Below, in pieces: positions 7,385 through 49,006 of a stretch of 49,109 nt of DNA. The stretch is from an uncultured SAR324 cluster bacterium (GTDB lineage Bacteria; SAR324; NAC60-12), in contig CACFAY010000006.1 in assembly GCA_902564345.1 (NCBI GenBank), forward strand, positions 1-49,109, in the 5' to 3' direction. Position numbers and translations under genes: made by a program. Every line of letters begins with the position of its first letter. The stretch's first letter is position 1. A model generated the notes under the pieces. It saw only the letters and a list, made by a program, of their open reading frames with translations, was not told the DNA's origin and did no database searches.

Positions 7385-7526
7385 GGTTTTAGATTTTAAT
7401 TTAAATCAAAATTATAAACTTTTTTGACAGAGTCAAACCAAAAAAAACTTCACCGTCAGAAAACATTCAGGTAAATGATGAATTTTGGAATCTTCTCTGT
7501 TTTAAGTCGATGGATTATTAAACAGA

Positions 7527-9062: not shown

Positions 9063-9109
9063 AATTTTTGTTAATTCTTCAGTTATTTTGTAAATGATAT
9101 TAAATATTA

Positions 9110-22603: not shown

Positions 22604-22835
22604 AATCTTATAATAATTCATTAATGTTTTTGTAGGTTAAGTTTTGAAAAATAATCCTAACTTTGAGTACATTTTAAAATTTTCAGCTAATCCTAACCTA
22701 TTTTTATTTAATTAAATGACTCTCACTTTATCATTTTAAGAGTTCACATATAAAATTATTTTTGATCTTTGATTTGTCTTGTACAATCAAAATCAAATTG
22801 GTTTTTAATTAAAATTAATATTATATTTCAGTTAT

Positions 22836-24251: not shown

Positions 24252-24280
24252 GTATTGCTTAGATATTAACTACGAAAAAA

Positions 24281-25882
24281 ATGGGAAAAAACACTGTAAT
24301 TATTGATACTTTTTCCAGACCAGCAAAGATTGAATTTACGTCCGAATTTAACGTTGCCGTTCCCTTTATTGATCGGCACCTTGATGAAGGCAGGAGGGAA
24401 AAAATTATAATACATACAACTTCAGGAGAAAAAGTAACTTATGGACAGCTCTTTGAGCGGGTCAATCAATCTGGGAATGTACTCAAAAGCATTGGCCTAG
24501 ATCCTGGTGACAGGATTCTGATGGTGGTTAAAGACTCTCCAGAATTCTTCTACTTATTCTGGGGGGCAATCAAGGCGGGTTTTATTCCAGTCCCGCTTAA
24601 CACTTTGTTCCGTTGCAATGATTATTCGCATATTATTGAGGATTCAGAGTGTGCTGCAGTTTTCTACTCCCCGGAATTCAAGACTGAAGTAGAATCAGCT
24701 TTAGCTCAAGTTTCTAGGAGTCCAGATCATTCATGTCTTACTGAAGGTGTTTCTGGAAGCTTTTTGGAACAGTTACAATCAGCTTCATTAGAACTTGATG
24801 CAGCACCTAAATCTGTAAATGATGATTGTTTTTGGCTCTATTCTTCCGGAACTACAGGAAAACCTAAAGGAGTGGTCCACAGTCATCGTGACATGGTGGT
24901 AACAAGTCAGCATTACGGTATAAACACTCTTGGAGTGAGAGAAGAAGATGTTTGTTTTTCAGCTGCAAAACTATTTTTTGCTTACGGTTTGGGAAACGCG
25001 ATGACATTTCCTTTATGGTCTGGTGCTTCCTGCATTTTATTTCCAGAACGTCCAACTCCTCAGTCAACTTTTGATATAATAAAGCAATTTAAGCCTTCAA
25101 TATTTTTTGGAGTTCCTACCCTTTATGCGGCACAGTTGAAGGAACTTAAATCAGGTTCAGACAGTTCTAATGCAATCCCAGATCTTTCTTCGATTAGAAT
25201 CGCAGTTTCTGCAGGTGAAGCCCTGCCAGCTGATATACTTCGCCGATGGAAAGAACATACGAAAACGGACATTCTCGATGGAATTGGGTCCACAGAAGCA
25301 TTGCATATTTTCATTTCAAATAGTCCGGATGATATCAGAGCAGGGAGCAGTGGAAGAATGGTGCCGGGGTATGATGCAAAAATTGTTGATGAAAACGGTA
25401 AAGAAGTTTCACAGGGTGAGGAGGGTCGTCTATTAATTCGTGGAGATTCAACCTGTAAATACTACTGGAATAATGAGCAGAAGACTGCTGAGACAATTGA
25501 GGGTGGATGGCTGCATACTGGAGACTCGTATCATCAAGATGAAGAAGGATACTATTTTTATGGGGGACGAAGTGATGATATGATGAAAGTAGGTGGAATA
25601 TGGTGTTCCCCATTTGAGATTGAAGCTAGGCTGGTAGAGCATCCAAAAGTACTGGAAGCCGCAGTTGTGGGACGTGAAGACGATTCAGGATTGATCAAGC
25701 CTGAGGCGCATGTGGTCCTTAATGATTCTGATGAAGAAACTGAATCTGTAACTGCTGAATTGCTAGTACACTGTAAATCGGGACTTGCTCCTTACAAATA
25801 TCCTCGATGGTTTAACTTTGCAGAACAACTTCCAAAAACTGCTACAGGTAAGATACAGCGTTATAAATTGCGATCTAACTGA
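24281..25882 (+). CDS. Benzoate-CoA ligase family protein
   Basis: FWLYSSGTTGKPKG, SAAKLFFAYGLGN, SAGEALP, DGIGSTE, DDMMKVGG, PKTATGKIQR; 29 nt after boxB. Confidence 0.9.
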   Translation: MGKNTVIIDTFSRPAKIEFTSEFNVAVPFIDRHLDEGRREKIIIHTTSGEKVTYGQLFERVNQSGNVLKSIGLDPGDRILMVVKDSPEFFYLFWGAIKAGFIPVPLNTLFRCNDYSHIIEDSECAAVFYSPEFKTEVESALAQVSRSPDHSCLTEGVSGSFLEQLQSASLELDAAPKSVNDDCFWLYSSGTTGKPKGVVHSHRDMVVTSQHYGINTLGVREEDVCFSAAKLFFAYGLGNAMTFPLWSGASCILFPERPTPQSTFDIIKQFKPSIFFGVPTLYAAQLKELKSGSDSSNAIPDLSSIRIAVSAGEALPADILRRWKEHTKTDILDGIGSTEALHIFISNSPDDIRAGSSGRMVPGYDAKIVDENGKEVSQGEEGRLLIRGDSTCKYYWNNEQKTAETIEGGWLHTGDSYHQDEEGYYFYGGRSDDMMKVGGIWCSPFEIEARLVEHPKVLEAAVVGREDDSGLIKPEAHVVLNDSDEETESVTAELLVHCKSGLAPYKYPRWFNFAEQLPKTATGKIQRYKLRSN

Positions 25883-30495: not shown

Positions 30496-31110
30496 CTATT
30501 TAAAAGCAATCATTCCTCCTGCTCCAATCAATAAAATTCCTCCAATTCGATTAGTCCAAAGATGTATAAGGGGAAGCCGCATATGCTGCCCTACGAGGCT
30601 AGATAGCAGGGAGTATAAAAGGACTGATAGAAGAGCCAGCCCAAGGAAGGTTGATCCCAAAATCAGGGACTGTGTTATAAAAGATTTTCCAGAATCTATG
30701 AACTGGGGTAAAAAAGCCAGAAAAAATACAATGCTTTTTGGATTAAGTGCTGTTATTACAAATGCGTTAGCCATTATTGCATGCCATACTTCGGTATCTA
30801 TATTTTCTGTCAATTCTAGTGATTATGATTCACTTCTCCACATTCTAATTCCCAGCCAAATCAAATATGCGGCTCCGATCCACTTAAAAAATTGAAATAC
30901 TATCGAAACTGTCTGTAAAAGCAGTCCCACCCCTATGAATGAAAGTAACATAGCGACAACATCTCCCAGCCCCACTCCCAAGAGAAGAGCAAAAACTGCC
31001 TGTCTGCCGCGAATCAATGAGTAACTGATCACAAGCAGAATGGTTGGACCCGGTATTAGCAAAAAGCTTGATATTACTAAAGCGTAGGTCAGCCAAGTAT
31101 CTAATGGCAT
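30496..31110 (-). pseudogene. LysE/RhtB family translocator interrupted by one in-frame TAA (30823-30825)
   Basis: Both ORFs are in the same frame: ...TGG AGA AGT GAA TCA TAA TCA CTA GAA TTG ACA...; joined they give 204 codons with IPGP, KWIGAAYL and NPKSIVFFLAFLPQF motifs; could be a sequencing error. Confidence 0.8.
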
Positions 31111-34830: not shown

Positions 34831-35616
34831 TTATGTTAAAAATTTAGCCTCTCCAACCATTAAATCCACTGCCTGCGTTACTGTATCAGCTTCATCTCCT
34901 TCAAATATTTGACCTTCTTTGCGTGACTCAGGTTTTTCAAATTGTAACACCTGTGTCATTGAACCTTGGATCCCGCTCATTTCGGATGTAATGCCTATAG
35001 AATCAAGATCAATTTCTTCCAAGGGTTTTTTCTTTGCCATCATAATACCGCGCATCGAAGCTAAGCGTGGTTCGTTTAAGCTGTCATTTACTGTAACTAA
35101 TCCCGGCATTACCATATCCACCACTTCAGTTCCATGATCGCCCTTTCGGTAAAGGGTGATATTTTTTTCAGAAACATCACTGAAGCGGATAATGTTTGTT
35201 ACTTGTGGTAGACCAAGGAATTCTGCTAGCATTGGAGCGGTTAATCCCGAATCCGTGTCCTGAGACTGCCTGCCGGTGAGTATAAGATCATAGTTGCGTC
35301 CCTCAAGAGCTTTTTGGAGTATTTTTGCGAAGGCATAAGAATCAGTTTCTCCAGCTTGATCATATTTGACGTGGATAGCTTTATGTGCTCCCATAGCCAA
35401 TCCTTTTCGCAGCGATTCTGCTGCTTTGTCAGGTCCGACGGTTAACAGTGTAACCTCACCTCCAACATCTTCTGTTATCTGCAATGCAGCTTCTAATGCA
35501 GTCTCATCCCAACTACTGATAACATAACTCAATCCTTCCTCTACTATTTCTCCTTCTTTCACTTTAATATTAAGTGCTACATCAGGAACTTGTTTAACTA
35601 GTACGATAATTTCCAC
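34831..35616 (-). CDS. etfB: Electron transfer flavoprotein beta subunit
   Basis: VLVKQVPD, ALEAAL, LAMGA, GRQSQD.D.G, NEPR..MRGIMMAKKKP. Confidence 0.95.
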   Translation of the reverse strand: MEIIVLVKQVPDVALNIKVKEGEIVEEGLSYVISSWDETALEAALQITEDVGGEVTLLTVGPDKAAESLRKGLAMGAHKAIHVKYDQAGETDSYAFAKILQKALEGRNYDLILTGRQSQDTDSGLTAPMLAEFLGLPQVTNIIRFSDVSEKNITLYRKGDHGTEVVDMVMPGLVTVNDSLNEPRLASMRGIMMAKKKPLEEIDLDSIGITSEMSGIQGSMTQVLQFEKPESRKEGQIFEGDEADTVTQAVDLMVGEAKFLT

Positions 35617-35720: not shown

Positions 35721-36917
35721 TCAACTGCCTACTGACGCAGCAGCCTTTTCTCCGCCTAATCGATTCTCCATGAAACGATTGTAACGGAAAGGTTTAATCA
35801 TTTCAGGTGTTCCTTGAGCTATCATTTGAGCTGTGTTGTAACCGCTTGCAGGCGAAGCTTTAAAGCCATATGTTCCCCAGCCGCCATTGACATAAAAACC
35901 TTCTATTTCGTCGATAGATGAGATTATTGGGCTGTAATCCGGTGTCATGTCACATAATCCTGCCCATTGTCGCTGAACTGCAACATTATGCAAGACGGGA
36001 AATAGTTCAAGTACATGAGCGGCATAACTTTCAAGAAAACCGAGAGTTGATCGCATTCCATAATGAGGATATGTGTCAATTCCATTTCCACACACAAGTT
36101 CTCCCCGATCGGTCTGACTGAGGTAGATGTGGAGTGAACCACTGACTACAACGTGATGCAGCCAAGGTTTATAGCCTTGTGTTACAAGAGCTTGAAGTGG
36201 ATGAGTCACAATAGGTAATTTAACACCAACTTTTCGGCAAACTTCCGAACTCCATCCCGCAACAACTGAAACGAGGCTCTTACAGTTTATTTTACCCTTG
36301 TTAGTTACAACTCCTTTAACTTTACCTTTTTCAATAATGATATCCTCTACCTTTGTCAACTGATGAATGTGCACACCTGCCTTGTCAGCTCCTCTTGCAT
36401 ATGCCCAGACTACGGCGTCATGACGAATAATACCGCCTGGAGGATGATAAAGCGCTCCCATTACAGGGAAACGAGGGTGATTAGAAATATCAATCTCAGG
36501 AAGCATCTCTTTAATCTCTTTTGGCTCAAGCATGTAACTGTCGATTCCAAGTGCCTTGTTGTTTTCAGCTCTTGTAACCAAACCCGACACTGCAGCTGTA
36601 GAATGACCTAGTGTGAAGTGCCCCTGCTGGCTGAACATCAGGTTATAATTAAGCTCTAATGACAGGTTTTCATAAAGTTTAAGGCTTTGGTCGTAAAATT
36701 TTATTCCTTCCTCTGTTCGATAATTTGAACGAAGAATTGCAGTGTTTCTGCCTGAGCCACCATAACCAATAAATTTCTGTTCGAGAACGGCAATATTTGT
36801 AATGCCGAGTTTGGTCAAATAATATGCTGTTGCCAATCCGTGTGCACCTGCCCCGATTATAACCACATCGTAGGATTTCTCCAGATCGTGGTTTTTCCAC
36901 ATTCGTTTATCCATCAT
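35721..36917 (-). CDS. soxB: Heterotetrameric sarcosine oxidase / N-methylglutamate dehydrogenase beta-type subunit (MgdA-like)
   Basis: YDVVIIGAGAHGLATAYYL, GRNTAILRSNY, RHDAVVW (FMN-binding His region), VSGSLH.Y.SQ..RGELV, GWGTYGFKA, GEKAAASVG; symbol is a family label only. Confidence 0.85.
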   Translation of the reverse strand: MMDKRMWKNHDLEKSYDVVIIGAGAHGLATAYYLTKLGITNIAVLEQKFIGYGGSGRNTAILRSNYRTEEGIKFYDQSLKLYENLSLELNYNLMFSQQGHFTLGHSTAAVSGLVTRAENNKALGIDSYMLEPKEIKEMLPEIDISNHPRFPVMGALYHPPGGIIRHDAVVWAYARGADKAGVHIHQLTKVEDIIIEKGKVKGVVTNKGKINCKSLVSVVAGWSSEVCRKVGVKLPIVTHPLQALVTQGYKPWLHHVVVSGSLHIYLSQTDRGELVCGNGIDTYPHYGMRSTLGFLESYAAHVLELFPVLHNVAVQRQWAGLCDMTPDYSPIISSIDEIEGFYVNGGWGTYGFKASPASGYNTAQMIAQGTPEMIKPFRYNRFMENRLGGEKAAASVGS

Positions 36918-37573
36918 TTATCCTTTTCAAATGAGACAGGAATTGTCTCAATTCCTGCTGGTACAAGTCCTACTCCAATGCCGACATCCATCAATGCATC
37001 ATAAAGCGATTCTGTGAGATTCCTCGGATGCATAATGATGTCAAAATTATTGGTTCGATACAGAGTCATATTTATTGTGTGAATCGATGATTGAATCACT
37101 GAACCGGCGACAACTCTGTCACGTCTCAAATCAACTGCTGTTGAACGCTCTAGAACCTCATCCCGTCGTGGGCCTCCTAATACTAAACAGCCGTTTGAAC
37201 CCGACTGATCAGTAACAGTTGTTATCTTTGAATCAATTTTCTCCAGCATACCTTTTTCCATGCCAGGGTTGCATAAAATCAGATAGTCATTTTTTGTCAA
37301 TCTCAGTATAGCCATTTTTGAATCAGCTATTGAACTCAGTGGCTCAATCTTAGAAGATCCCTTTAGTATCTTTTCAGCCGCTGCTGATGCATCCCCCCGA
37401 GAAAGAGAAATTTTGCCAATGTGCGACCAGTCGACGAGGACTGAACTTTTTTTCAGGTTCTCCTGCTCACGTTCAGTATTCCCAAAATTCCCGGCAATAT
37501 GCCATCCTGAAACTTCAAAAATATTTACTGGGTGATTGCGGTATATTCCTGAAAGAGGGCTTGTTTTAATCAC
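36914..37573 (-). CDS. soxG: Sarcosine oxidase gamma / MgdD-like subunit (GcvT N-terminal-like fold)
   Basis: SPL start, LVDWSHIGK, TVTDQSG...LVLGGP...VL....VDLR; overlaps the beta gene by 4 nt. Confidence 0.7.
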   Translation of the reverse strand: MIKTSPLSGIYRNHPVNIFEVSGWHIAGNFGNTEREQENLKKSSVLVDWSHIGKISLSRGDASAAAEKILKGSSKIEPLSSIADSKMAILRLTKNDYLILCNPGMEKGMLEKIDSKITTVTDQSGSNGCLVLGGPRRDEVLERSTAVDLRRDRVVAGSVIQSSIHTINMTLYRTNNFDIIMHPRNLTESLYDALMDVGIGVGLVPAGIETIPVSFEKDK

Positions 37574-37733
37574 TTCATTCTCCTCTTGTTTGTAATCTGA
37601 CTATGATGTTGTATTTTTTTGAATAATCTATTTTTTTAAATTTTAATCTCATCTTTTGGCTCGAAAACGTTTTATTAAAACTTAATAAAATCTCCACTAT
37701 ACTAAATGTCATTAGAAGATTAATTTTTTAAAT

Positions 37734-38453
37734 TCATTCATCCAAATTATTTCTTATTTCTGAAAGCCTTCTTATTTGTTCACCTTTTGAGTTAAAATTT
37801 TCTGGACTAAGCCATTTTTCAAAAGAATTTTTTAGAACGGGCCAGTTTTTGTCTATGACAGAATACCATGCTGTATCACGATTTCTTCCCTTATATACAA
37901 GTGCCTGTCTGAATATTCCTTCATAGGTAAACCCCAGCCTCAATGCGGTATTTCTCGAAGCAGCATTAAGAGAGTCACATTTCCATTCACACCGGCGGTA
38001 ACCAAGCTCATCAAAAATACGGCGCATCATCAAATACATTGCTTCAGTAGCAATGGTTGTTTTTTTCAATAATTGTGAAAAATGAATCTTTCCAAGTTCT
38101 ATAACCCCATTAGCTGGCTGAATCCTAAGGTATGCGCATATTCCTGTTGGCTTTTCTGTCTTTAAGTCTATGATTGCGAAGTAAACAGGATCATTCTCAT
38201 TACTGACATGCTTTATCCAAGATTCAAATACATCTAAGCTATCAAATGGGCCATACGACAAATAAGTCCATTCAGAGCCATCATTTTTTTCCAAAAAAGC
38301 GTTAAAAAGATCTTTTGTATGCTTTTCAGGTTCTAATGCCTCCACACGACACAAGTTGCCTGATACCATCGATCGTTGAGGCATTTGACAATCTTTCCAA
38401 TCAGGAACAGAAAATCCTACAGGCTGTTCAAATGAATTGTGGCAGTTCTCCAA
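37734..38453 (-). CDS. GNAT family N-acetyltransferase (RimJ/RimL type)
   Basis: WTYL.YGPF, GVIELG.I.FS, LGYRRCEWKCDSLN.AS...A.RLGF.YEG.FRQ...KGRNRDTAWYS. Confidence 0.9.
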   Translation of the reverse strand: MENCHNSFEQPVGFSVPDWKDCQMPQRSMVSGNLCRVEALEPEKHTKDLFNAFLEKNDGSEWTYLSYGPFDSLDVFESWIKHVSNENDPVYFAIIDLKTEKPTGICAYLRIQPANGVIELGKIHFSQLLKKTTIATEAMYLMMRRIFDELGYRRCEWKCDSLNAASRNTALRLGFTYEGIFRQALVYKGRNRDTAWYSVIDKNWPVLKNSFEKWLSPENFNSKGEQIRRLSEIRNNLDE

Positions 38454-38464
38454 TCTTTCCTAAA

Positions 38465-41368
38465 TTAACTTTTTAAACGTTCACCTTCGGGGTCATATGC
38501 TGCATGATCCAACACAGTGGCTTGCACATCTTCTCCATTAGCCAATCTTATGAAGAAATGGCTGCCTGTTTCCGACAGATCATTTCTGACCCAGGCTAGG
38601 CCAATTCCTCTTTTCAAGGTAGGACTTAGCCGTGAACTTGTTACACGTCCGGCAATTTTCCCATTATCCAGCACAGCAACGCCATCGTCTGGAATGGGAG
38701 CGTCTGTTTCAAGTTGGTAAGGTACAAGTTTGTTTTCAATACCGCGTTCCTTGAAATGCTTCAAGAACGCCTTGCCGACAAAATCATCCTTATCATCTTT
38801 AATAGCGAAACCTACTCCAGTTTCATATGGGCTGCTCAGGGCATCAGTATCAGTTCCCGGTAACAGGTGACCTTTTTCCAAACGCAAAATACGCTGTGTT
38901 TCAACTCCAAAAGGCTTTAAATCAAACTCTTCTCCTTCAGCTAACAGATAATTCCACATAGATTCACCATATTCAGCAGGGAAATGAATTTCATACCCCA
39001 GTTCTCCGGTGAAGCCAATCCTATAGAATGAAACAGGTACATCTGCAATTTTAGTCTTTCGGCAATGCATGTAGGGAAAATCTTCGTTTGACATGTCGAT
39101 ATCAACAAGTTTCTGCAGAAAATCTCTGGCTGTCGTTCCTGTTACATTCACAGCTGCATTTGTTAGGCTGAGATTCCTGACCTGCACATCAAAATCTTCC
39201 ACCAGCAGCCACCATTGAAAAAGTGAATTTATTGCATCTTGGTTCCCTGTAGTAGTGGTAAGGTAGTAAATCCCATTTTCAATATGAGAAATAGTTCCGT
39301 CCTCAAACAGGATACCGTCTTCTCCAATCATTATAGAGTAACGCGTACGCCCTAACTCAAATTTTGCATATTTCCCTGGAAGTAAAAAATGTAGAAACTT
39401 TATTGCTTCCGGTCCGCTTATTTCAATTTTTCCAAGTGTACTAACATCAATCATTCCTAATCCATTACGAATAAATCCTGCTTCTATTTGGGGTGCAGTG
39501 TATGAATCAGGACGTTTCCATTGGCCAGCATCAAGAAATTTTACTCCTAGATCAATGTGACAGTGATGTAGTGGAGTACGCCTAATTGGAGACAGATGAG
39601 GTGCTCGTCCGGCAAGCAAACCAAATGTAGCTCCAGTGAAAGGAGGACGAACTGTGGTCACGACAGCATCCAGTTTAGAAAGTCCTGTGTCCTGAGCCGC
39701 AAGGCGAGCTACTGCCTCATGGCAGGCCTTACCCTGGCATGGCCCCATGCCCATGCTTGAGTAACGTTTTAGAGATTCTACTTGGTCATATCCCTCATCG
39801 ATGGATGCTTGTGCTTCAGTCCTTGTAACATCCATGCATTTGCATATAAAATGATGTGTTCCACCAGATTCAATATCTGCAGGCAGAGCAGTTATTATTT
39901 CTTCTGCAGTCCTTTCAGTCTTAACAGTATATACTTTCCCGGGAGATATTTTAGTTAAAGCAGCATCTTTTCCGGACTGAAATCCTTCTGCATATAAATG
40001 AGCAAACCCTGCTGATCCATGCACTTCTCCTGCAGAAAATACTCCAGAAGGTAATTCGGAAACACGCAAAATTTGGCGCTCAGCATCCCACTTTGGAGGC
40101 TTGTTTCCCATTGAGAGTAGGTTTATCTGTGGTTTAAAACCCACAGCCATTATAAGCAAATCACAGTCAAATGATTTTATCGAATTACCTCCGGAAAGTG
40201 GACCCACCTCTACACTTTCAATTCTTTTTCTGCCATTTGCAACATGAGCAGTAAGTCCCTTATAGACAGGAATTGCAAGCTCGCGTATTTTCTTTTCGAA
40301 AACTCCTTCATTATTTCCATCTTCACGTCCATCAACCACCGCTATAATTTTTGCTCCGGCACCATGCATAAGAAGTGCGGTATGAAACCCGCCATCATGA
40401 GTTGTAACCACAACCACATTTTCACCTGGTAGAACCGCATGACGCATGATCAGTCTTTCAACTCCGCGGGCAGTCATAATTCCAGGACGATCATTATTTT
40501 CAAAAACCAGATGCCTATCAGTCGCACCAGGCGCAAGAATAACTGAATCAGCCCTGATCTTGAACAAATCATGTCCACATTGTGCTGCAATCAAATTATC
40601 TTCATAAAGCCCAAACACATTTGAGTTTACTAATACTTCCAGGTTCGAAAATTCTGTAAGCTCATCAATTAATTTTTGAATGGCCTGATACTCTGGTAAA
40701 CCGTTGAGATTTAAATTTTCGCAATTGTCAACCTGTGCAATACTGTGAATTGAATGACCTCCAAGCACTGAGTTGTCATCCAGTAAAAGAACATGTTTCC
40801 CCTCCTGAACGGCAGCAAGAGTTGCTGCCAAACCCGACGGGCCAGCTCCAACAATGCACACATCAGGAAAACGGTATCTTTTTTCGTATCTTCTTTCAGC
40901 GTTTCTATCTTCAGTGTCTATTCTGCCAAGTCCTGCGGCCTTGCGGATTTGCTTCTCTGCAATGGGCCACATCCATTTTGGTTTGTGAAACATTTTATAG
41001 TAAAAACCGTTTGGAAGCATTGGAACGATTGTGTCATTTATTTCTCCAATATCGAACTCCAATGAAGGCCAGGCATTTTGCGATTTGACACTCATACCGT
41101 TTTGTACGAGTATTCGGTCAGCCAGCAGGTTTGGTTCATGATTGGCCGTAACCAATGATTCATGTCCTTGGCCGTATATGTCATAAGCACCCCGAGGTCT
41201 GTGATACTTGAAGCTTCGTGACAGTAGTGTTCGTCCTGATGCAATCAATGCAGAAGTAATAGTGTCAGTTGTATACGCCTGAATGCGTTTGCCGTTAAAC
41301 TTGAATGATAATTCCTTTCCTAAATCAGGAAGCTCGCAGTATTGATGAGTATCGATCCTATTTTTCAT
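38465..41368 (-). CDS. soxA: Sarcosine oxidase alpha / MgdC-like subunit (NAD-binding + BFD-like + GcvT domains)
   Basis: LLSRSFKYHRPRG, FYYKMF, VGAGPSG, FENNDRPGIM, LKRY..MGMGPCQGK, DVSTLGKI, GFTGELGYE, LRLEKGH, YDPEGER. Confidence 0.88.
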   Translation of the reverse strand: MKNRIDTHQYCELPDLGKELSFKFNGKRIQAYTTDTITSALIASGRTLLSRSFKYHRPRGAYDIYGQGHESLVTANHEPNLLADRILVQNGMSVKSQNAWPSLEFDIGEINDTIVPMLPNGFYYKMFHKPKWMWPIAEKQIRKAAGLGRIDTEDRNAERRYEKRYRFPDVCIVGAGPSGLAATLAAVQEGKHVLLLDDNSVLGGHSIHSIAQVDNCENLNLNGLPEYQAIQKLIDELTEFSNLEVLVNSNVFGLYEDNLIAAQCGHDLFKIRADSVILAPGATDRHLVFENNDRPGIMTARGVERLIMRHAVLPGENVVVVTTHDGGFHTALLMHGAGAKIIAVVDGREDGNNEGVFEKKIRELAIPVYKGLTAHVANGRKRIESVEVGPLSGGNSIKSFDCDLLIMAVGFKPQINLLSMGNKPPKWDAERQILRVSELPSGVFSAGEVHGSAGFAHLYAEGFQSGKDAALTKISPGKVYTVKTERTAEEIITALPADIESGGTHHFICKCMDVTRTEAQASIDEGYDQVESLKRYSSMGMGPCQGKACHEAVARLAAQDTGLSKLDAVVTTVRPPFTGATFGLLAGRAPHLSPIRRTPLHHCHIDLGVKFLDAGQWKRPDSYTAPQIEAGFIRNGLGMIDVSTLGKIEISGPEAIKFLHFLLPGKYAKFELGRTRYSIMIGEDGILFEDGTISHIENGIYYLTTTTGNQDAINSLFQWWLLVEDFDVQVRNLSLTNAAVNVTGTTARDFLQKLVDIDMSNEDFPYMHCRKTKIADVPVSFYRIGFTGELGYEIHFPAEYGESMWNYLLAEGEEFDLKPFGVETQRILRLEKGHLLPGTDTDALSSPYETGVGFAIKDDKDDFVGKAFLKHFKERGIENKLVPYQLETDAPIPDDGVAVLDNGKIAGRVTSSRLSPTLKRGIGLAWVRNDLSETGSHFFIRLANGEDVQATVLDHAAYDPEGERLKS

Positions 41369-41658
41369 CTGGAGTCCCCTTCATTTTTAGAAGAATTATT
41401 ATCCAGCTCATGATACCAAAAGCTTTTATGGTCAGTATTATTTGTGGTGTCACGTTCTGCTAAAAACCAGCTTTGACAACCGTTTCGGTGATACCACCAT
41501 TCGGTTTGAGGCCCCATTTTGTTTTTACGGAAATAGACATAATCTACCCAAACTGAAAAATCAGCATCTGGGGCAGGACGTTTCAAATATTCACTCCTGA
41601 AAGTAAATTCGCTTACAGCTCGTTTCCCACAATTTGGGCATTTTAATTGATAACTCAT
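41365..41658 (-). CDS. soxD: Sarcosine oxidase delta subunit
   Basis: CPNCG.R...EF, W.DYVY.R.N, EWW.H..GC..WF..ERDT (Cys2-His-Cys Zn site); overlaps the alpha start by 4 nt. Confidence 0.88.
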   Translation of the reverse strand: MSYQLKCPNCGKRAVSEFTFRSEYLKRPAPDADFSVWVDYVYFRKNKMGPQTEWWYHRNGCQSWFLAERDTTNNTDHKSFWYHELDNNSSKNEGDSR

Positions 41659-41734: not shown

Positions 41735-43048
41735 TCATCCATTTACAGAAAAACTGCTGTTAGGATTAATTTCACGATTGCGTGAGTAGAATCCCATGTT
41801 TAGTTCCAGTCCTGTATAGACAGTTTTTACTTTGACAGGATTTGTATCATGATCTTGTCCATTTTCACATGCGTTTATTAGTTCAGCCATGCAGTGCCCT
41901 GCAACGGGGGCGTTTTTAAATTGGTTACCGCTGGAACCGATTGCCATATAAAAACCCTTGAGCGCAGACTTATCATAAATTGGTAACCAATCGTCTGAAA
42001 CATCATATAAATCCACCACACCACTTGTTCGTGAGGGGATTTTTAGTTGTGGTATTCTTTTGGCACAACGGTAAACTTGGGCTTTCCATTGCGATTCTGT
42101 AACCTGCTGGTTATAGTTATCAGGATCAGAAATCCATTCTTTTGGATCACATAATGGGTCTTCACTGCCAATTAGGATTGTATTGCCTGTTTCCGGACGA
42201 AAGTATATTCCGTTGTCACCGTCAGAGGTATGGAATCCATCTTTTTCAAAATCATATCCCTCTGGAGATGGTACATGATGTACCTCATGTCTTAAGGCTC
42301 TTGTTTTAATATTCATGTCTCTCTCAACATCAGCCATTCTGTTGATTACAAAAGAATGAGGTCCCGCAACATTAACGACAATCGGTGAGTCAATTTGTTC
42401 ACCTGTTTTTAAAGTCACACCCTCGATCTTTCCATTTTGCTGCCTAATTTCTGTGATTTCACTATTAAATATAAAGTCACCACCGTTTGCCTCTGCTGCG
42501 ACCTGCAAATTGTGGGAAGTCAGCTGGGGATCACTTACATATCCTGATCCTGGAGTGTAAACGGCACCTTCTATTTTTTTCCCAGTCTTATCCCAAAAGT
42601 GATCATCTTCATCTGGTCGAGTTGTGCCGTCGTATTGATCATGGGAATAAATGGGAATCATTTCTTTGAGTTTTTCGAGATCCCATATTTCGTGTTCAAC
42701 TCCAATTTCTTTAAATAGTTTTAGGCATTTACTACTATGATCTTCGCCTTCAAGTTTAAATAAAATGGAACCAGTTTTCATATATTTTATCATCCCGCGA
42801 TCGTCCTTCACTCCGATATAATCATCCCAGTCATCCCAGTAAAAAAAACCCTCGTAAGCCATTGCTACACCATCCCATGTAGAGTAATGTGCCCTGACGA
42901 TAGCACATGAATTACTAGTTGATCCATATCCTGAAGTTGGAAGTTTATCTATGTTTAATGTTTTGTATCCACGTTTTGCTAATTCGAAGGCAACTGAGGA
43001 GCCAATTACTCCTGCCCCGACAATTATGGCGTCTGCGGTTCTATTCAT
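41735..43048 (-). CDS. FAD-dependent oxidoreductase, DAO/sarcosine oxidase-like, substrate unknown
   Basis: IVGAGVIG, GSTSNSCAIVR, VVNVAGPHS, YFRPE, LYDVSDDWLPI, GSSGNQFK.AP. Confidence 0.85.
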   Translation of the reverse strand: MNRTADAIIVGAGVIGSSVAFELAKRGYKTLNIDKLPTSGYGSTSNSCAIVRAHYSTWDGVAMAYEGFFYWDDWDDYIGVKDDRGMIKYMKTGSILFKLEGEDHSSKCLKLFKEIGVEHEIWDLEKLKEMIPIYSHDQYDGTTRPDEDDHFWDKTGKKIEGAVYTPGSGYVSDPQLTSHNLQVAAEANGGDFIFNSEITEIRQQNGKIEGVTLKTGEQIDSPIVVNVAGPHSFVINRMADVERDMNIKTRALRHEVHHVPSPEGYDFEKDGFHTSDGDNGIYFRPETGNTILIGSEDPLCDPKEWISDPDNYNQQVTESQWKAQVYRCAKRIPQLKIPSRTSGVVDLYDVSDDWLPIYDKSALKGFYMAIGSSGNQFKNAPVAGHCMAELINACENGQDHDTNPVKVKTVYTGLELNMGFYSRNREINPNSSFSVNG

Positions 43049-43594: not shown

Positions 43595-43975
43595 TTAATT
43601 TTTTCTAGAATCCCAGACTATCTCAACTTCCACGTGATCTAGTATCCCTTGAATCGGTACAGACGGCTTTCTGATTCTAACTAAAATCATTTCAAGAGGA
43701 TATCTATGCCTCATTTCCTCAATGATTCTATTCCCAAGAGTTTCAATCAAATTAAACGATTGCTCTGAACTTACCCTGCTTACAATTTTGTGAGCATTTA
43801 CATAGGAAATTGTAGTGTTTTCTTCATCTACCCATGGATCAGGAGGATCCTTAAGCATATATTCTAGATCTATTTCAAAACGCTGACCCAGAGTTTTTTC
43901 TTCCTGATGTACTCCGTGAAATCCGTATACAACTATGTTTTGTAGGCGAATTGTATATTTTTTATTACTTTCCAA
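43595..43975 (-). CDS. folB: Dihydroneopterin aldolase
   Basis: YGFHGV..EEKTLGQRF.ID, TISY, FNLIETL, RIRKP..PI.G....VEVE. Confidence 0.88.
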   Translation of the reverse strand: MESNKKYTIRLQNIVVYGFHGVHQEEKTLGQRFEIDLEYMLKDPPDPWVDEENTTISYVNAHKIVSRVSSEQSFNLIETLGNRIIEEMRHRYPLEMILVRIRKPSVPIQGILDHVEVEIVWDSRKN

Positions 43976-44025
43976 AGTAATTTTTTTTTACTTTAAAATA
44001 TTTCATATTTCATAAAAAAGACAAT

Positions 44026-45747
44026 TCATGACAACCCAGTTATTCTCCCCTCGGAGTCAATGTCAATTCTTTGTACTGCGGATTGTTTTGGCATTCCCGG
44101 CATTAGCATCATTTTCCCAGTGAGAACAACAATAAATCCTGCTCCATTAGAAACTTTCACATCCCTGACCTGTAAGCGCCAGCCAGTTGGAGCATTTCGT
44201 TTTTTTGGATCATCTGAAAGAGATGCCTGGGTTTTGGCCATGCAAATTGGCCAGTTGGCCAGCCCGTTTTCTTGTAAACGGATTATTGAAGCATCTGCTT
44301 CTTCTGTATAGTCAACCCCATCTGCTCGGTATATTTCCCGTGCAACGGTTTGAATTTTATCCTTTATAGTGTCAGTATCGTCATAATAATAATTAGGTGC
44401 ACCAGGACTTTCATCAACAACACGTTTTATTTTTTTTGCCAAGTCCATACCACCTTCACTCCCTTTTGCGACTACTTCGCTGAGAGAACATTCTACACCT
44501 ATTTCCTCGCAATAATGTCGAACTGTATCGAGTTCTGCAGGCGTGTCGGAAGGGAATCTATTAATTGCCACAATTACAGGTAGTCCGTATTTTTGAACAT
44601 TTTCTGCGTGAGTTCTTAAATTTTCACAGCCTGTTTTAAGTGCCTCAAGATTTTCTGTATTCAAATTATCTTTCTCAACACCTCCGTGATATTTAAGCGC
44701 CCTCACTGTTGCAACCAATACACAAGCATTTGGGTTTAGACCAGCCTGGCGGCACTTTATGTTTACAAATTTTTCTGCACCTAGATCTGCTGCAAAACCA
44801 GCTTCTGTAACAACGTATGGTGCTAGTTTAAGAGACAATCTTGTAGCTCTTACGCTGTTTGAACCGTGGGCTATATTTCCAAATGGACCACAATGAACAA
44901 AAACTGGTGTATGCTCACAGGTTTGAACAAGATTTGGCTTCAACACGTCTTTCAGAATTACGCACATTGATCCTATACAGTCTAACTCGCGTGCAAAAAC
45001 AGGTTCCCCGGAATTGTTGTAGGCAACTACTATTCTACCAAGCCGTTCTCGTAAATCATCCATGTCTAGAGCAAGTGCTACAATTGTCATAATTTCCGAT
45101 GCCGCTACAATATCAAATCCGGTTTTGTGAGGAAAACCATCAAACTTTGATCCTAGTCCAATTTCTCCGTTACGAAGCTGTCTGTCACATAAATCAATTG
45201 TACGTCTCCAGGTTACTTTTTCATAGTCAATTTTTAATGGATTATCAAAATGCATGGAATTATCTAGCACAGCAGACAAAAGATTGTGGGCAGCAGCTAT
45301 TGCATGTAAGTCACCTGTAAAATGCATGTTGATGTCTTCCATTGGAAGAACCTGGGAATAACCTCCGCCAGCGGCACCTCCTTTTATCCCAAATGTTGGC
45401 CCCATACTTGGTTCACGCAGAGCCAATGCGTGCTTGATTCCGAGCTTTCCAAATGCCTGAGCCAAACCTATAGAAGTGCAGGTCTTTCCCTCTCCAGCTG
45501 GTGTAGGTGTGATTGCTGTAACTAAAATTAATTTCCCGTCTGGATTATCTTTAACTTGTTCCCAGACACTGTTTTCAATTTTTGCTTTAAATTTTCCATA
45601 CAGTTCAAGTCCATCAATTTCAATATTTAGCATTGAAGCAATTTCTGGAATTTTTTTCATTGATGCATTCTGAGAAATTTCAATATCAGAAGGAATACTT
45701 GGCATCTTTGGATATTGGGATTCTAAATCTGATTCGGAAGGTTTCAT
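44026..45747 (-). CDS. fhs: Formate-tetrahydrofolate ligase
   Basis: TAITPTPAGEGKT, KGGAAGGGYSQV, HFTGD, GPFGNIAHG, TEAGFAADLGAEKF, CMAKTQ.SLSD, MPGMPK. Confidence 0.96.
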   Translation of the reverse strand: MKPSESDLESQYPKMPSIPSDIEISQNASMKKIPEIASMLNIEIDGLELYGKFKAKIENSVWEQVKDNPDGKLILVTAITPTPAGEGKTCTSIGLAQAFGKLGIKHALALREPSMGPTFGIKGGAAGGGYSQVLPMEDINMHFTGDLHAIAAAHNLLSAVLDNSMHFDNPLKIDYEKVTWRRTIDLCDRQLRNGEIGLGSKFDGFPHKTGFDIVAASEIMTIVALALDMDDLRERLGRIVVAYNNSGEPVFARELDCIGSMCVILKDVLKPNLVQTCEHTPVFVHCGPFGNIAHGSNSVRATRLSLKLAPYVVTEAGFAADLGAEKFVNIKCRQAGLNPNACVLVATVRALKYHGGVEKDNLNTENLEALKTGCENLRTHAENVQKYGLPVIVAINRFPSDTPAELDTVRHYCEEIGVECSLSEVVAKGSEGGMDLAKKIKRVVDESPGAPNYYYDDTDTIKDKIQTVAREIYRADGVDYTEEADASIIRLQENGLANWPICMAKTQASLSDDPKKRNAPTGWRLQVRDVKVSNGAGFIVVLTGKMMLMPGMPKQSAVQRIDIDSEGRITGLS

Positions 45748-45813
45748 TTGATTAAAATGTTTTTGGTTAAATTATTGTTATTTAATCTTACTGGTATAAC
45801 TAATCGATTAGGT

Positions 45814-46683
45814 TTAGTGAACTGGCATTTTTTTACCAATGGCAACGATGGTAACTACCAATACTGCAAATATTATTGTTTGTAAGTTTACTGTCTCGTT
45901 GATTAAAAAAGCAGAGGCAAGTAGAGTTACAAAAGGTTGCATTAACTGTGTCTGGCTTACTCGGGCGATCCCACCTAAGGCCAGACCTTTGTTCCAAAGG
46001 AAAAAACCAAATAACTGACTGACTAAAGCCAAATATAAAAAACTTAGAAGAACATTTAGCGGAAGATTGCTGAAATCCTCTTCTGGTGCTTTCATCCATG
46101 CAGGAAAAATTATAAATGGGAATGAAATCACAAGTGCCCAACAAATTACCTGCCAACCTCCTAATTCCCTTGAGAGTTTACCTCCAAGTGCATATCCCAA
46201 TCCAGCACTTAAAATTGCTCCAATTAGTAACAAGTCTCCCAATTGGAAAGAACCAAATCCCTGCAAAAGCGAATATGTAACAACTACTATACTTCCAATC
46301 AGGCTAAAAATCCAGAAACCTACCGAAGGCTTTTCCTTGGAAACTATAACTGCTGAAGCTGCAGTTGCTAATGGTAAAACTCCTAGAACTACGCCTCCAT
46401 GTGATGCTGGTACTGTTTCCATTGCCCATGCTGTTAAGATAGGGAATCCTAAAACAACCCCTAATGCAACAACTGATAGTTGCATTAACTGATGCCTATT
46501 TGGTTTAGATTGTTTTGTAGCAATCAAAATAAATGCGGCTACAGCTGAAGCAATTACCGCTCGACCCAATCCTATGAATATAGGATCAAAATAAGGTACC
46601 ACAAATTTTGTGGCTGGAAGTGTTAACCCAAATGCGACAACTCCTAAAAAGCCAAGGATCATTCCTTTTGGTTCATTACTCAT
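45814..46683 (-). CDS. DMT/EamA family transporter
   Basis: About 10 TM, FGLTLPAT, VVLGFP, GGWQVICWAL, WNKGLALGGIARVSQ.QL.QPF. Confidence 0.88.
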   Translation of the reverse strand: MSNEPKGMILGFLGVVAFGLTLPATKFVVPYFDPIFIGLGRAVIASAVAAFILIATKQSKPNRHQLMQLSVVALGVVLGFPILTAWAMETVPASHGGVVLGVLPLATAASAVIVSKEKPSVGFWIFSLIGSIVVVTYSLLQGFGSFQLGDLLLIGAILSAGLGYALGGKLSRELGGWQVICWALVISFPFIIFPAWMKAPEEDFSNLPLNVLLSFLYLALVSQLFGFFLWNKGLALGGIARVSQTQLMQPFVTLLASAFLINETVNLQTIIFAVLVVTIVAIGKKMPVH

Positions 46684-46706
46684 TTTTCTGGGATTTTACT
46701 TTAGGA

Positions 46707-48077
46707 TTAGCACTCAGGCAAATTAACTGCAAGACCGCCTAATGAGGTTTCCTTGTAATGTTGGAGCATATCCTTCCCTGTTTTATGCATTGTAGCAATA
46801 ACTCTATCCAGCGAAATAATATGATTCCCATCCCCTCTCTTGGCAAGCCTTGCGGCATTAATTGCCTTTATTGCACCCATTGTGTTTCGTTCAATGCAGG
46901 GAATCTGAACCAAACCTCCTACAGGGTCACAGGTTAGTCCAAGATTATGTTCCATGCCAATTTCTGCGGCATTGGCAATTTGACTAAGTGTACAGTCCAT
47001 AATTGCAGCGAGGCCACCTGCTGCCATAGAACACGCAACTCCAACTTCTCCTTGACACCCAACTTCTGCTGCGGATATAGAAGCACCCTCTTTGAATAAA
47101 ATTCCTATTGCTCCTGCTGTTAGTAAAAAATTTATAATTTTGTCTTCATCGAAATCTGTTCTGAAACGACTGCAATAATGCATTACAGCTGGAATTACTC
47201 CGCCTCCTCCATTAGTTGGGGCTGTAACCATACGACCACCAGCAGCGTTTTCTTCATTGACTGCTATAGCAAATAAACTTACCCAGTCCATAACCTCTGA
47301 AGGTGATGAGTCTGGTTTTTCTATTAATTCTTTGTATAATAATGGAGCGCGTCGGCGTACATTCAATCCCCCCGGAAGTAGGTTTTCTTTAGAGGCCATT
47401 CCTCTTTTTGTACATTCCTGCATTACACTCCAAATATTTAACAATCCTTCCCTAATTTCAGATTCAGTGCGCCAGGTCTGCTCATTTTTCCACATTAATT
47501 CCTGACAGTTCATTCCTGTTCTTTCACAGTGTGTAAAAAGTTCTTCCCAAGTATTAAAAGGGAATGGAGTTTGAATTGTTTTAATTTCAACTTCATTTTG
47601 GATCTCATCACTGTTCAGAATAAATCCTCCTCCAATTGAATAAAATTCTTGTTCGTGAAGAACATTGCGGTCAGTATCAAAAACTGTGAAACGCATTCCA
47701 TTTGAATGATGAGGCAAAAATTCATCATGATTGAAGATTAAGGAGTTTTTCTCTTCAAAAGGAATACAGTGCTCATTCATCAGGTTAAGTGTCTTATTTC
47801 TATTTATTAGATCAAGACGGACAGGAATTTGTTCTGTATCAATTGAAGAAGGCTCATTCCCCTCTAATCCCATCAAAACAGCTCTATCAGTCCCATGACC
47901 CTTCCCAGTAAGAGCAAGTGACCCATATAACTCAATCTTAAGTGAAGCAATTTTTTTAAGAGGTAACTTTTCCATGTAGTTAAACAAAAATTGTTTTGCC
48001 GCGAACATTGGGCCTACAGTATGAGAACTTGAGGGGCCTATCCCTATTTTGAAAAGGTCAAATACACTAATATTCAT
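46707..48077 (-). CDS. sdaA: L-serine ammonia-lyase (Fe-S dependent)
   Basis: SVFDLFKIGIGPSSSHTVGPM, YSIGGGF, AVNEENAAGG..VTAPTNG, AEVGCQGEVG, GLTCDPV.GLVQIPCIERN, YKETS.GGLA. Confidence 0.96.
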   Translation of the reverse strand: MNISVFDLFKIGIGPSSSHTVGPMFAAKQFLFNYMEKLPLKKIASLKIELYGSLALTGKGHGTDRAVLMGLEGNEPSSIDTEQIPVRLDLINRNKTLNLMNEHCIPFEEKNSLIFNHDEFLPHHSNGMRFTVFDTDRNVLHEQEFYSIGGGFILNSDEIQNEVEIKTIQTPFPFNTWEELFTHCERTGMNCQELMWKNEQTWRTESEIREGLLNIWSVMQECTKRGMASKENLLPGGLNVRRRAPLLYKELIEKPDSSPSEVMDWVSLFAIAVNEENAAGGRMVTAPTNGGGGVIPAVMHYCSRFRTDFDEDKIINFLLTAGAIGILFKEGASISAAEVGCQGEVGVACSMAAGGLAAIMDCTLSQIANAAEIGMEHNLGLTCDPVGGLVQIPCIERNTMGAIKAINAARLAKRGDGNHIISLDRVIATMHKTGKDMLQHYKETSLGGLAVNLPEC

Positions 48078-48100
48078 TTTCTATATTTATCTTAAATATA

Positions 48101-49006
48101 CTATGTACGTTTTACTCGAAGACGTCTTTTTTGTCTTCTTCCACCTGTTTCACTTAAAGAGACTGGCTGTCTGAATCTTTTTATCCATCTTACACAGTTA
48201 GGATCATTCCCCATCATTACATCAGCTCCCATTACTGCCTGCATAACTGAGTCGTGTATAGGGTTTGTTATTGCAGAGGTAAGACCGGAGGCAATAGCCA
48301 TTGTTAGGAAGGCGCTGTTAATTCCATTACGATTTGGTAATCCAAAACTAACGTTAGATGCACCACAAGTAGTGTTTACTTTTAATTCTTCCTGTAAACG
48401 CCTTACTAGCCTTATGACCTGCATTCCTGCTGAGTTTAGTGCTCCGATTGGCATAACTAGTGGGTCCACAACTATGTCTGAGCTAGAAATACCGAAATCT
48501 TTAGCACGATTAACTATTTTTTTTGCTACTTCAAAGCGTATGTCTGGGTCCTCTGATATACCCGTTTCATCATTGGAAATTGCAACAACCGCACAACCAT
48601 ATTTTTTGACGAGAGGCAAAACTGATTCAAGTCTTTCTTCTTCACCAGTTACAGAATTCAATAAGGCCTTACCTTGATAAACTTCCAATCCTGCTTGAAG
48701 GGCCGCAACGATTGATGAGTCAATAGAAAGAGGCAGGTCTGTAATTTTTTGAACTAGTTTAATTGTGTCAGCAAGAATTTTTGGTTCATCTGCAAGAGGA
48801 ATTCCGGCATTAACATCTAGCATATGTGCTCCTGCAGCTACTTGAGCATGAGTATCCTGCTCCACTCTACTAAAATCACCTTTTGCCATTTCCTCTGATA
48901 GCAATTTTCTACCGGTTGGATTTATTCTTTCGCCAATTATTACGAAAGGCTGATCAAATCCTATAATAACCTCTTTTGTTGCGGAACTAATTACGGTTTT
49001 AGTCAT
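48101..49006 (-). CDS. Methyltetrahydrofolate:corrinoid methyltransferase (stand-alone pterin-binding domain)
   Basis: IIGERINPTGRK, LDVNAG, LSIDSS, NSVTGE, DPLVMP, CGASNVSFGLP. Confidence 0.88.
   Translation of the reverse strand: MTKTVISSATKEVIIGFDQPFVIIGERINPTGRKLLSEEMAKGDFSRVEQDTHAQVAAGAHMLDVNAGIPLADEPKILADTIKLVQKITDLPLSIDSSIVAALQAGLEVYQGKALLNSVTGEEERLESVLPLVKKYGCAVVAISNDETGISEDPDIRFEVAKKIVNRAKDFGISSSDIVVDPLVMPIGALNSAGMQVIRLVRRLQEELKVNTTCGASNVSFGLPNRNGINSAFLTMAIASGLTSAITNPIHDSVMQAVMGADVMMGNDPNCVRWIKRFRQPVSLSETGGRRQKRRLRVKRT

Follow-up and report, generated by a model that had tools for sequence, protein, structure and literature searches.

Which N-methyl amino acid is oxidised, and to which acceptor are the electrons handed, by the enzyme encoded at positions 35,721 to 41,658 (minus strand) of contig CACFAY010000006.1 from an uncultured SAR324 bacterium? 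The whole stretch analysed, 49,109 nucleotides long and here called the window, belongs to a 1.86 Mb assembly that is 51.5% complete; homologues with names and the conserved order of its genes likewise indicate SAR324. It encodes homologues of all four subunits of heterotetrameric sarcosine oxidase (Sox; TSOX) and N-methylglutamate dehydrogenase (Mgd). An earlier note on this DNA had proposed an operon of four subunits with mixed Mgd and Sox signatures, encoding a tetrahydrofolate (THF)-dependent N-methyl amino acid dehydrogenase that would pass electrons through an Fe-S centre to electron transfer flavoprotein (ETF) or NAD. We consider it somewhat probable that this Sox-type heterotetramer, whose alpha subunit has a four-Cys site likely to hold iron, would act as a folate-linked N-methylglutamate dehydrogenase and catalyse the final reaction of the GmaS-Mgs-Mgd methylamine pathway; across the branch, its electron carrier is likely not ETF. 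Sarcosine with ETF is a possible alternative in SAR324. What we observed directly is the homology of the four subunits, their motifs, the position in trees and the co-occurrence of genes, whereas the mechanistic steps given below are inferred from the TSOX and proline dehydrogenase families. The four-subunit operon stood as far as homology is concerned; the gene order is in fact delta-alpha-GNAT-gamma-beta, with an unrelated acetyltransferase gene inserted:

41365..41658, minus strand: delta subunit (SoxD/MgdB-like), 97 aa; PF04267, 80.8 bits; zinc-type site Cys7/Cys10/His57/Cys61
38465..41368, minus strand: alpha subunit (SoxA/MgdC-like), 967 aa; Pfam domains; TIGR01372 728.8 (below 1164)
41114..41200, minus strand: position of the lost N-terminal ferredoxin motif C-x4-C-x2-C-x(n)-C in alpha
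39722..39844, minus strand: four-Cys motif of alpha, C509-x-C511...C544-x4-C549, likely a metal (iron) site
38492..39571, minus strand: folate-binding GCV_T and GCV_T_C domains of alpha, with the invariant Asp690
37734..38453, minus strand: GNAT acetyltransferase gene between alpha and gamma, not a subunit; PF13302
36914..37573, minus strand: gamma subunit (SoxG/MgdD-like), 219 aa; GCV_T E 2e-14
35721..36917, minus strand: beta subunit (FAD, DAO family), 398 aa; TIGR01373 444.2 (below 529.45)

The alpha subunit consists of a Cys-less N-terminal ferredoxin-like domain, a Rossmann domain, a four-Cys A3/BFD-like domain and a folate-binding GcvT domain. The four-Cys motif described in the earlier note is present and reads FICKCMDV...LKRYSSMGMGPCQGKAC, with Cys509 (codon 39844-39842), Cys511 (39838-39836), Cys544 (39739-39737) and Cys549 (39724-39722). 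The SO_alpha_A3 domain spans residues 505-588, and Pfam Fer2_BFD matches residues 508-556 with 33.8 bits (cut-off 26). For comparison we used the best 120 of 7,992 matches, 76 of them with more than 50% identity (the clade) and 44 with about 39%. All four Cys are complete in 74/76 clade members, which argues against chance, and in 44/44 outer homologues. The clade includes members from SAR324, cyanobacteria, Cyclobacteriaceae, Kiritimatiellae and Acidobacteriota. Of the two exceptions one is truncated; the other, P0071 (41 sequences in its cluster), has D-C-G-S at the site, resembling the Cys-less state reached separately by SoxA and MgdC.

That SoxA and MgdC are devoid of these Cys, a claim for which an alignment of the motif had been named as a check, holds for all chains compared. 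At the four aligned positions, Cys is missing from both solved SoxA chains (2GAG_A and 1VRQ_A). The MgdC-type alpha of P. aminophilus pAMI6, which we identify with the mgdC of PMC4543880 because it lies near gmaS-mgsABC, shows D-Q-D-S; D-D-S-S is found in the alphas that adjoin mgs in P. phymatum, A. caldus and Kovacikia.

The four-Cys motif is not peculiar to the window locus. In a survey of the best 150 family representatives at 50% clustering, chosen without regard to the motif, the four Cys are complete in 32 and not in the other 118. An N-terminal ferredoxin motif (C-x4-C-x2-C type) is also present in 24 of the 32; the other eight are one full-length representative of the window's clade and seven shorter proteins (578-875 aa), which are probably fragments. 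Among the homologues, the N-terminal motif occurs in 0/72 covered clade members versus 44/44 outer proteins. Based on this survey and these counts, the family falls, by its motifs, into three states: both sites, four Cys only (the window's clade), and none (SoxA and both Mgd types). The Sox/Mgd-like clusters with both motifs (L080, L084, L086, L087, L089, L094-L097, L113; P0077-P0120) form a larger and apparently uncharacterised set; they often lie behind mgsABC/gmaS in the order delta-alpha-gamma-beta, and the 1211-aa alpha of L086 looks fused to gamma.

What do the four Cys bind? The four Cys of alpha align one-to-one with those of the P. horikoshii proline dehydrogenase 1Y56_A (phmmer E 7e-4), and by this homology they likely hold a metal, iron. 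The retained four-Cys site of the earlier note thus stands, whereas its label as Fe-S is not established, since Table S2 of PMC4575208 lists the homologous site as "Fe-4Cys", separate from the 2Fe-2S unit. One could also picture an ordinary O2-using, H2O2-forming TSOX-like oxidase acting on N-methylglutamate or sarcosine, in which the four Cys bind a redox-inert structural Zn or Fe as an ancestral leftover. Every TSOX part is present, including a His aligned with His172 of 1VRQ_B; the upstream ferredoxin motif, the natural electron exit, is lost in all 72 covered clade members, and the alpha tree implies repeated loss of the Cys, even inside the clade (P0071). We nevertheless consider such an oxidase unlikely: the four Cys persist in 74/76 members from the various groups of the clade, and the P. 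horikoshii L-proline dehydrogenase, which is in the same state (four Cys kept, 2Fe-2S lost), is listed with dye acceptors in the same Table S2.

The GCV_T region of alpha (residues 600-959) with its invariant Asp690 supports the THF-dependent N-methyl amino acid oxidoreductase proposed in the earlier note. The AlphaFold model of alpha (predicted local distance difference test score, pLDDT, 80.5; predicted template modelling score, pTM, 0.62; residues 528-541 below pLDDT 50) matches the TSOX alphas 2GAG_A and 1VRQ_A as well as 1Y56_A; the top Foldseek matches have a TM of 0.67, and the best matches outside Sox are T-proteins. In beta, Arg63, His166 and Lys353 align with Arg69, His172 and Lys358 of 1VRQ_B, counterparts which we take to serve the substrate carboxylate and the covalent FMN; the cofactors of TSOX are likewise presumed here. 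Beta carries EGIKFY, VSGSLH and GEKAAASVG, as previously noticed, and is 50-51% identical to Paraburkholderia-type Mgd proxies, with close motifs, but has none of the SoxB motifs NYLWDE, VMSNH and GTGGFK that occur in 1VRQ_B and Azoarcus SoxB. Sarcosine oxidase cut-offs are missed by alpha (TIGR01372, 728.8/1164), beta (TIGR01373, 444.2/529.45) and delta (TIGR01374, 69.3/116.5), and gamma has no match to the heterotetrameric sarcosine oxidase models TIGR01372-01375 at E<=1e-15.

The Cys2-His-Cys (CCHC) site claimed for delta is likewise present (C7/C10/H57/C61). Loci were collected as the best 80 of 578 in a metagenome scan, which gives no motif frequencies because one of its two search patterns includes a motif Cys. 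The delta CCHC occurs in 24/29 clade loci, the remaining five being truncated or not covered, and in 20/21 loci with both alpha motifs. Lost delta zinc ligands (C-N-H-S/T) accompany D-D-S-S-type alphas in 18 loci (L028-L038, L098-L137), A. caldus excepted.

Where does the clade stand relative to SoxA and MgdC? The motif columns were taken out before alpha trees were calculated, one by FastTree from 169 rows of 850-1250 aa and one by IQ-TREE (quick) from 56 hand-picked rows; both are unrooted. Beta trees comprise 47 and 44 rows, 25 near-copy or redundant loci having been dropped; the betas were drawn from loci, and a beta homologue search yielded near-identical copies and no outer relatives. 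Mgd is represented by proxies, the genetically tested proteins of M. universalis, M. silvestris and R. pomeroyi being outside the set. In the alpha trees the clade forms a single branch (100) among the both-motif proteins, apart from a D-Q-D group (SoxA-like plus Paracoccus MgdC, 100) and a D-D-S-S group (99-100), and the beta trees recover the same three groups (100/100, 100/100, 99/97). Nesting of all subunits inside one known clade, which would have spoken against the earlier note, was not seen for alpha or beta. When the clade was forced into a sister position in approximately unbiased (AU) tests on beta, p was 0.048 for the D-D-S-S and 0.068 for the D-Q-D group; deep branches are weak. 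Section 9 of PMC13236597 uses grouping with reference mgd clusters in trees as its criterion for Mgd; judged against our proxies only, the clade lies outside the D-D-S-S and D-Q-D groups for alpha as well as beta.

The "mixed signatures" of the earlier note were not supported by these comparisons, as MgdA-like beta motifs are common to nearly all non-canonical groups. One might think of a mosaic operon, a separate class assembled from Mgd (beta), Sox (delta) and Hcn/opine-type (alpha motif) subunits. Beta indeed has its motifs in common with the beta-type MgdA, delta keeps the CCHC lost in most D-D-S-S-type clusters, and the AU tests marginally disfavour both sister positions. On the other hand, alpha and beta trees are congruent, with the same clade (100) among or beside the both-motif clusters, and the same three traits occur together in both-motif relatives (CCHC in 20/21 loci). 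We have therefore turned down a mosaic origin, which is very improbable, on the congruence of the trees, the AU tests being borderline. Because MgdA-like beta motifs and the delta CCHC are widespread among relatives and the two trees agree, the "mixed" signatures are best read as retained ancestral states and would not be chimeric. On the alpha tree, the state "none" needs four changes, three of them forced by starred branches. The direction from ancestral to lost is suggested by the Cys shared with 1Y56-type enzymes, the alpha trees being unrooted.

The gmaS and mgs genes point to N-methylglutamate as substrate. As the earlier note had said, they are absent among the 39 window proteins scanned; its view of the substrate as drawn from this absence is not supported, because the genes are found elsewhere in the same genome and in most clade genomes. 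Contig C46 of the window's genome carries gmaS-mgsABC (GmaS TIGR03105 636.5, cut-off 469.6), and the window cluster holds the sole full-length SoxA-like gene found in this 51.5% complete genome. In a Kiritimatiellae locus (L009), the same clade lies directly behind the N-methylglutamate genes, in the order gmaS-mgsABC-delta-alpha-gamma-beta. In G263, gmaS lies 1 nt before delta-alpha-gamma of this clade; in G167 a divergent gmaS is two genes away from its delta, and in G042 mgs-gmaS lie about 10 kb from it. MgsC was detected in 10/10 non-SAR324 clade genomes tested, with gmaS or mgs flanking the cluster in four, and GmaS scores above cut-off in 4/5 genomes tested; in the fifth, a contig end truncates it. 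Each of five non-SAR324 genomes tested has one beta-like gene, and three of these five have no full-length dimethylglycine dehydrogenase (DMGDH)-like gene as a source of sarcosine. Among the nearest both-motif loci, mgs or gmaS adjoin the cluster in 10/21. A Sox-like four-gene set that co-occurs or is linked with gmaS-mgsABC, the linkage expected of an Mgd, was thus found.

A draw of 301 cyanobacterial genomes shows the same association: MgsC is present in 31/31 with a SoxA-like alpha (7 of the window's clade) versus 13/270 others, kin not being independent and alphas possibly missed, since two candidates were scored per genome. Altogether, 44/301 have MgsC. Alphas of two types occur, 7 from the window's clade and 24 others (all five of those inspected being D-D-S-S), and they correspond to two classes of MgsC score (63-66% and 69-79% to the query); in 13 genomes MgsC is present and no alpha was found. 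Outside the cyanobacteria, a SAR324 relative (L021, G017:C47) has one cluster in which an ammonium transporter and two different gmaS-mgsABC-like sets lie together with a trimethylamine N-oxide demethylase that scores above the NF053776 cut-off. In two genomes from the other SAR324 family (L028 in G031, L029 in G030), a D-D-S-S-type cluster is found instead, in the order beta-delta-alpha and with no MgsC match. According to section 9 of PMC13236597, homarine can be a further source of N-methylglutamate.

Several observations weigh against the reading as an iron-bearing N-methylglutamate dehydrogenase. An MgsC-like gene is found in 14/17 SAR324 carriers of the clade, the close type (73-79%) in nine only; three (G020, 93% complete; G009; G012) have no MgsC match at E<=1e-100, and five more hold merely a 50-54% paralogue. 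In none of five tested carriers without the close type is GmaS over its cut-off, and G020 has neither MgsC nor GmaS. Of the ten non-SAR324 genomes, eight are cyanobacteria and hence not independent. The genes around the cluster suggest betaine/sarcosine catabolism (sdaA, pterin methyltransferase; in relatives MtgC-, MttB- and DMGDH-like genes). A 459-aa DAO-family flavoprotein beside mgs in SAR324 (G000:C46:3422-4801, L020; orthologues in L021 and L026) could be an alternative N-methylglutamate oxidiser in the methylamine pathway. Turnover with O2 would fit His166 and the TSOX architecture fully. Finally, P0071 is a clade member without three of the four Cys, and Cys-less Mgd enzymes oxidise N-methylglutamate without the site, for which reasons it may be dispensable.

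Is ETF the acceptor? As the earlier note had it, etfBA lie directly behind beta, with etfB starting 104 nt on. The neighbouring genes on both sides of the cluster are:

34831..35616, minus strand: etfB (context); PF01012
33770..34732, minus strand: etfA (context); order-wide SAR324 orthologue, sole etfA found in the 51.5% complete genome
31175..33640, minus strand: dimethylglycine/sarcosine dehydrogenase-like flavoprotein, 821 aa (context); DAO + FAO_M + GCV_T
41735..43048, minus strand: DAO-family flavoprotein, conserved beside the cluster in SAR324 (context)
43595..49006, minus strand: one-carbon (C1)/folate genes upstream: folB, fhs, EamA transporter, sdaA, pterin-binding methyltransferase

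The same adjacency is seen in L013 and L082 as well as in 15/29 scored clade loci; these 15 all show the SAR324 arrangement, and many are near-copies. No etf gene adjoins the cluster in the 21 both-motif, 29 Cys-less or 3 partial loci scored. EtfA was found in 1/10 non-SAR324 clade genomes, with 35% identity and far from the cluster (assembly completeness unstated); the same query matches G042 and 33/41 SAR324-order genomes. The window's etfA is an orthologue found throughout the SAR324 order, usually single in the genus and present also where the clade is missing from the genome. The 20 kb around the G020 cluster hold no etf gene, the orthologous etfA being on another contig. The etf adjacency is a local SAR324 arrangement and not a branch-wide trait; ETF as a clade trait was ruled out on these counts, and the enzyme as a class does not appear to need it. 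The ETF-linked class of the earlier note is hence not upheld beyond SAR324; within SAR324, use of ETF by the tetramer is possible.

Single-chain DMGDH-like enzymes are textbook ETF clients, and the 821-aa neighbour is the likeliest client of this ETF. This bears on the proposal that the tetramer of SAR324 belongs to a glycine-betaine island and dehydrogenates sarcosine (or N-methyl amino acids more broadly), its four-Cys site delivering electrons to the adjacent EtfAB. The position of etfBA, the sdaA, fhs, MtgC/MttB-like and DMGDH-like genes of the island, and the occurrence of the clade in G020 without MgsC or GmaS speak for it. It conflicts with the rarity of EtfA outside SAR324 and with G020 itself, where etfA is unlinked; moreover, the ETF is an orthologue shared with clade-free genomes and followed by a DMGDH-like client, three DMGDH/sarcosine dehydrogenase-like genes in the window's genome could oxidise sarcosine, and beta is devoid of the SoxB pocket motifs. 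We regard this proposal as rather unlikely.

NAD as acceptor, also put forward earlier, found no support: the second nucleotide motif region of alpha is degenerate to the same extent as in SoxA/MgdC, and Table S2 of PMC4575208 gives no NAD(P) activity for any of six related four-Cys enzymes (0/6), listing dye acceptors. The nucleotide of the alpha Rossmann domain may be NAD, FAD or ATP.

If the enzyme is an N-methylglutamate dehydrogenase, its FAD in beta would oxidise the N-methyl group to an imine, and the C1 unit would pass to THF in the GcvT domain of alpha, yielding 5,10-methylene-THF and glutamate; Fhs of the same island may process this C1 unit further. Electrons would move from FAD via an FMN at beta His166 to the iron held by the four Cys, perhaps as mononuclear Fe(Cys)4 or as [2Fe-2S], and exit to a host-specific carrier. 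In SAR324, the cluster would have moved into a betaine/C1 island, away from gmaS-mgsABC, where the housekeeping ETF could serve the tetramer but would mainly serve the DMGDH-like neighbour. A bolder version, doubtful in our view, sees here a third class of N-methylglutamate dehydrogenase that bears iron and survives as an intermediate in a series in which metal centres were lost step by step (two sites, four Cys only, none); in SAR324 it would have been rewired to ETF. If so, this series would connect the respiratory dehydrogenases of proline and opines with the sarcosine oxidases that use O2, and SAR324 would oxidise methyl groups derived from methylamine, perhaps homarine, via ETF with energy conservation, while some cyanobacteria would use another carrier.

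On the minus strand, the genes follow one another as pterin-binding methyltransferase, sdaA, EamA transporter, fhs, folB, a YbaK-type gene, the DAO-family flavoprotein, delta, alpha, GNAT, gamma, beta, etfB, etfA and the 821-aa DMGDH-like gene. Every gap along this row is at most 160 nt, and the gamma and beta frames overlap by 4 nt. The GNAT insertion is missing from L008, L009, L023 and L071; in the SAR324 loci L003, L011, L022 and L024 the alpha-gamma insertion varies (class V aminotransferase, GNAT, YtoQ-family), the window keeping GNAT only. An 821-aa-type gene comes after etfA in the SAR324 loci long enough to reveal it. The DAO-family flavoprotein at 41735-43048 also neighbours the cluster in L103 and, at 78-100%, in SAR324 loci; by analogy with the opine dehydrogenase described in PMC4575208, it could be a second catalytic subunit. 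Part of the stretch is present in 20/24 listed RNA runs (at most 0.33 of its words). Contigs from four runs span 26-28 of the 30 bins of the island; from contigs alone and with no silent-stretch control, neither an expression level nor co-transcription with etfBA follows. A promoter scan gave 49 sites versus 50.5 expected.

Further away, a LysE-type exporter at 30496-31110 is split into open reading frames (ORFs) of 95 and 105 aa, its orthologues in L003, L011 and L024 being single 205-aa ORFs. The regions 5444-10504 and 20936-25882 hold genes for aldehyde ferredoxin oxidoreductase, SauS (acylating sulfoacetaldehyde dehydrogenase, above cut-off) with TauE and Tct transporter genes, and boxC-boxB-benzoate-CoA ligase.

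Full-text searches of an open-access library, with subscription papers largely missing, brought up no description of a four-Cys SoxA/MgdC or of the SAR324 cluster; the supplementary trees of PMC13236597 may include members of the branch. Section 9 of that paper says that automated pipelines label mgd wrongly as sox, and since the present proteins fall below family cut-offs, the branch is overlooked or named "sarcosine oxidase" or "2Fe-2S protein". If the N-methylglutamate dehydrogenase so far missing is supplied by it, the methylamine pathway of SAR324 and of a subset of cyanobacteria would be complete and under-counted by the usual markers. A metal site next to the flavin relay would also offer an experimental handle on the dehydrogenase-oxidase switch in Sox/Mgd enzymes and on the electron acceptor of Mgd. 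The both-motif relatives (24/150 representatives) seem uncharacterised as well. The chemistry itself is of a known kind, and the surprise is moderate.

How, then, does the enzyme compare with known systems? Like MgdABCD of the Methyloversatilis/Paraburkholderia and Methylocella/Paracoccus/Ruegeria types, it has four homologous subunits, a folate domain and a genomic link to gmaS-mgsABC. It differs in keeping the four Cys where the Mgd proxies compared have D-D-S-S or D-Q-D-S, in its separate position in alpha and beta trees, in the order delta-alpha-gamma-beta and, in SAR324, in being unlinked from mgs. With SoxBDAG (Corynebacterium 1VRQ; 2GAG) it shares, by sequence and fold (TM 0.67), four subunits, a folate domain, the delta zinc ligands and the aligned beta Arg/His/Lys, the His being that presumed to carry FMN; the Cys-free A3 domain and the SoxB active-site motifs are not found in the window enzyme, its scores stay below the TIGR cut-offs, and neither glyA nor purU lies beside the window cluster, unlike in SoxBDAG. 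ETF-linked dimethylglycine/sarcosine dehydrogenases likewise couple FAD-dependent oxidation of an N-methyl group to folate but are single-chain enzymes, an architecture found in the 821-aa gene after etfA and not in the window tetramer. The P. horikoshii dye-linked L-proline dehydrogenase (1Y56) has the aligned four-Cys motif and, as in the window's clade, lost N-terminal 2Fe-2S ligands (PMC4575208, Table S2; PMC1949818), and what the two have in common appears limited to this domain state. Alphas of the L-proline, opine and D-hydroxyproline dehydrogenases are about 490 aa long (1Y56_A, 493) and have no folate-binding domain; SoxD/SoxG-type subunits are missing from these complexes, and their C-x4-C-x2-C-x11/12-C [2Fe-2S] unit, absent in P. 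horikoshii, is found in 0/72 clade members. The window enzyme would thus work like MgdABCD or TSOX, yet by trees and cut-offs it falls into neither known group.

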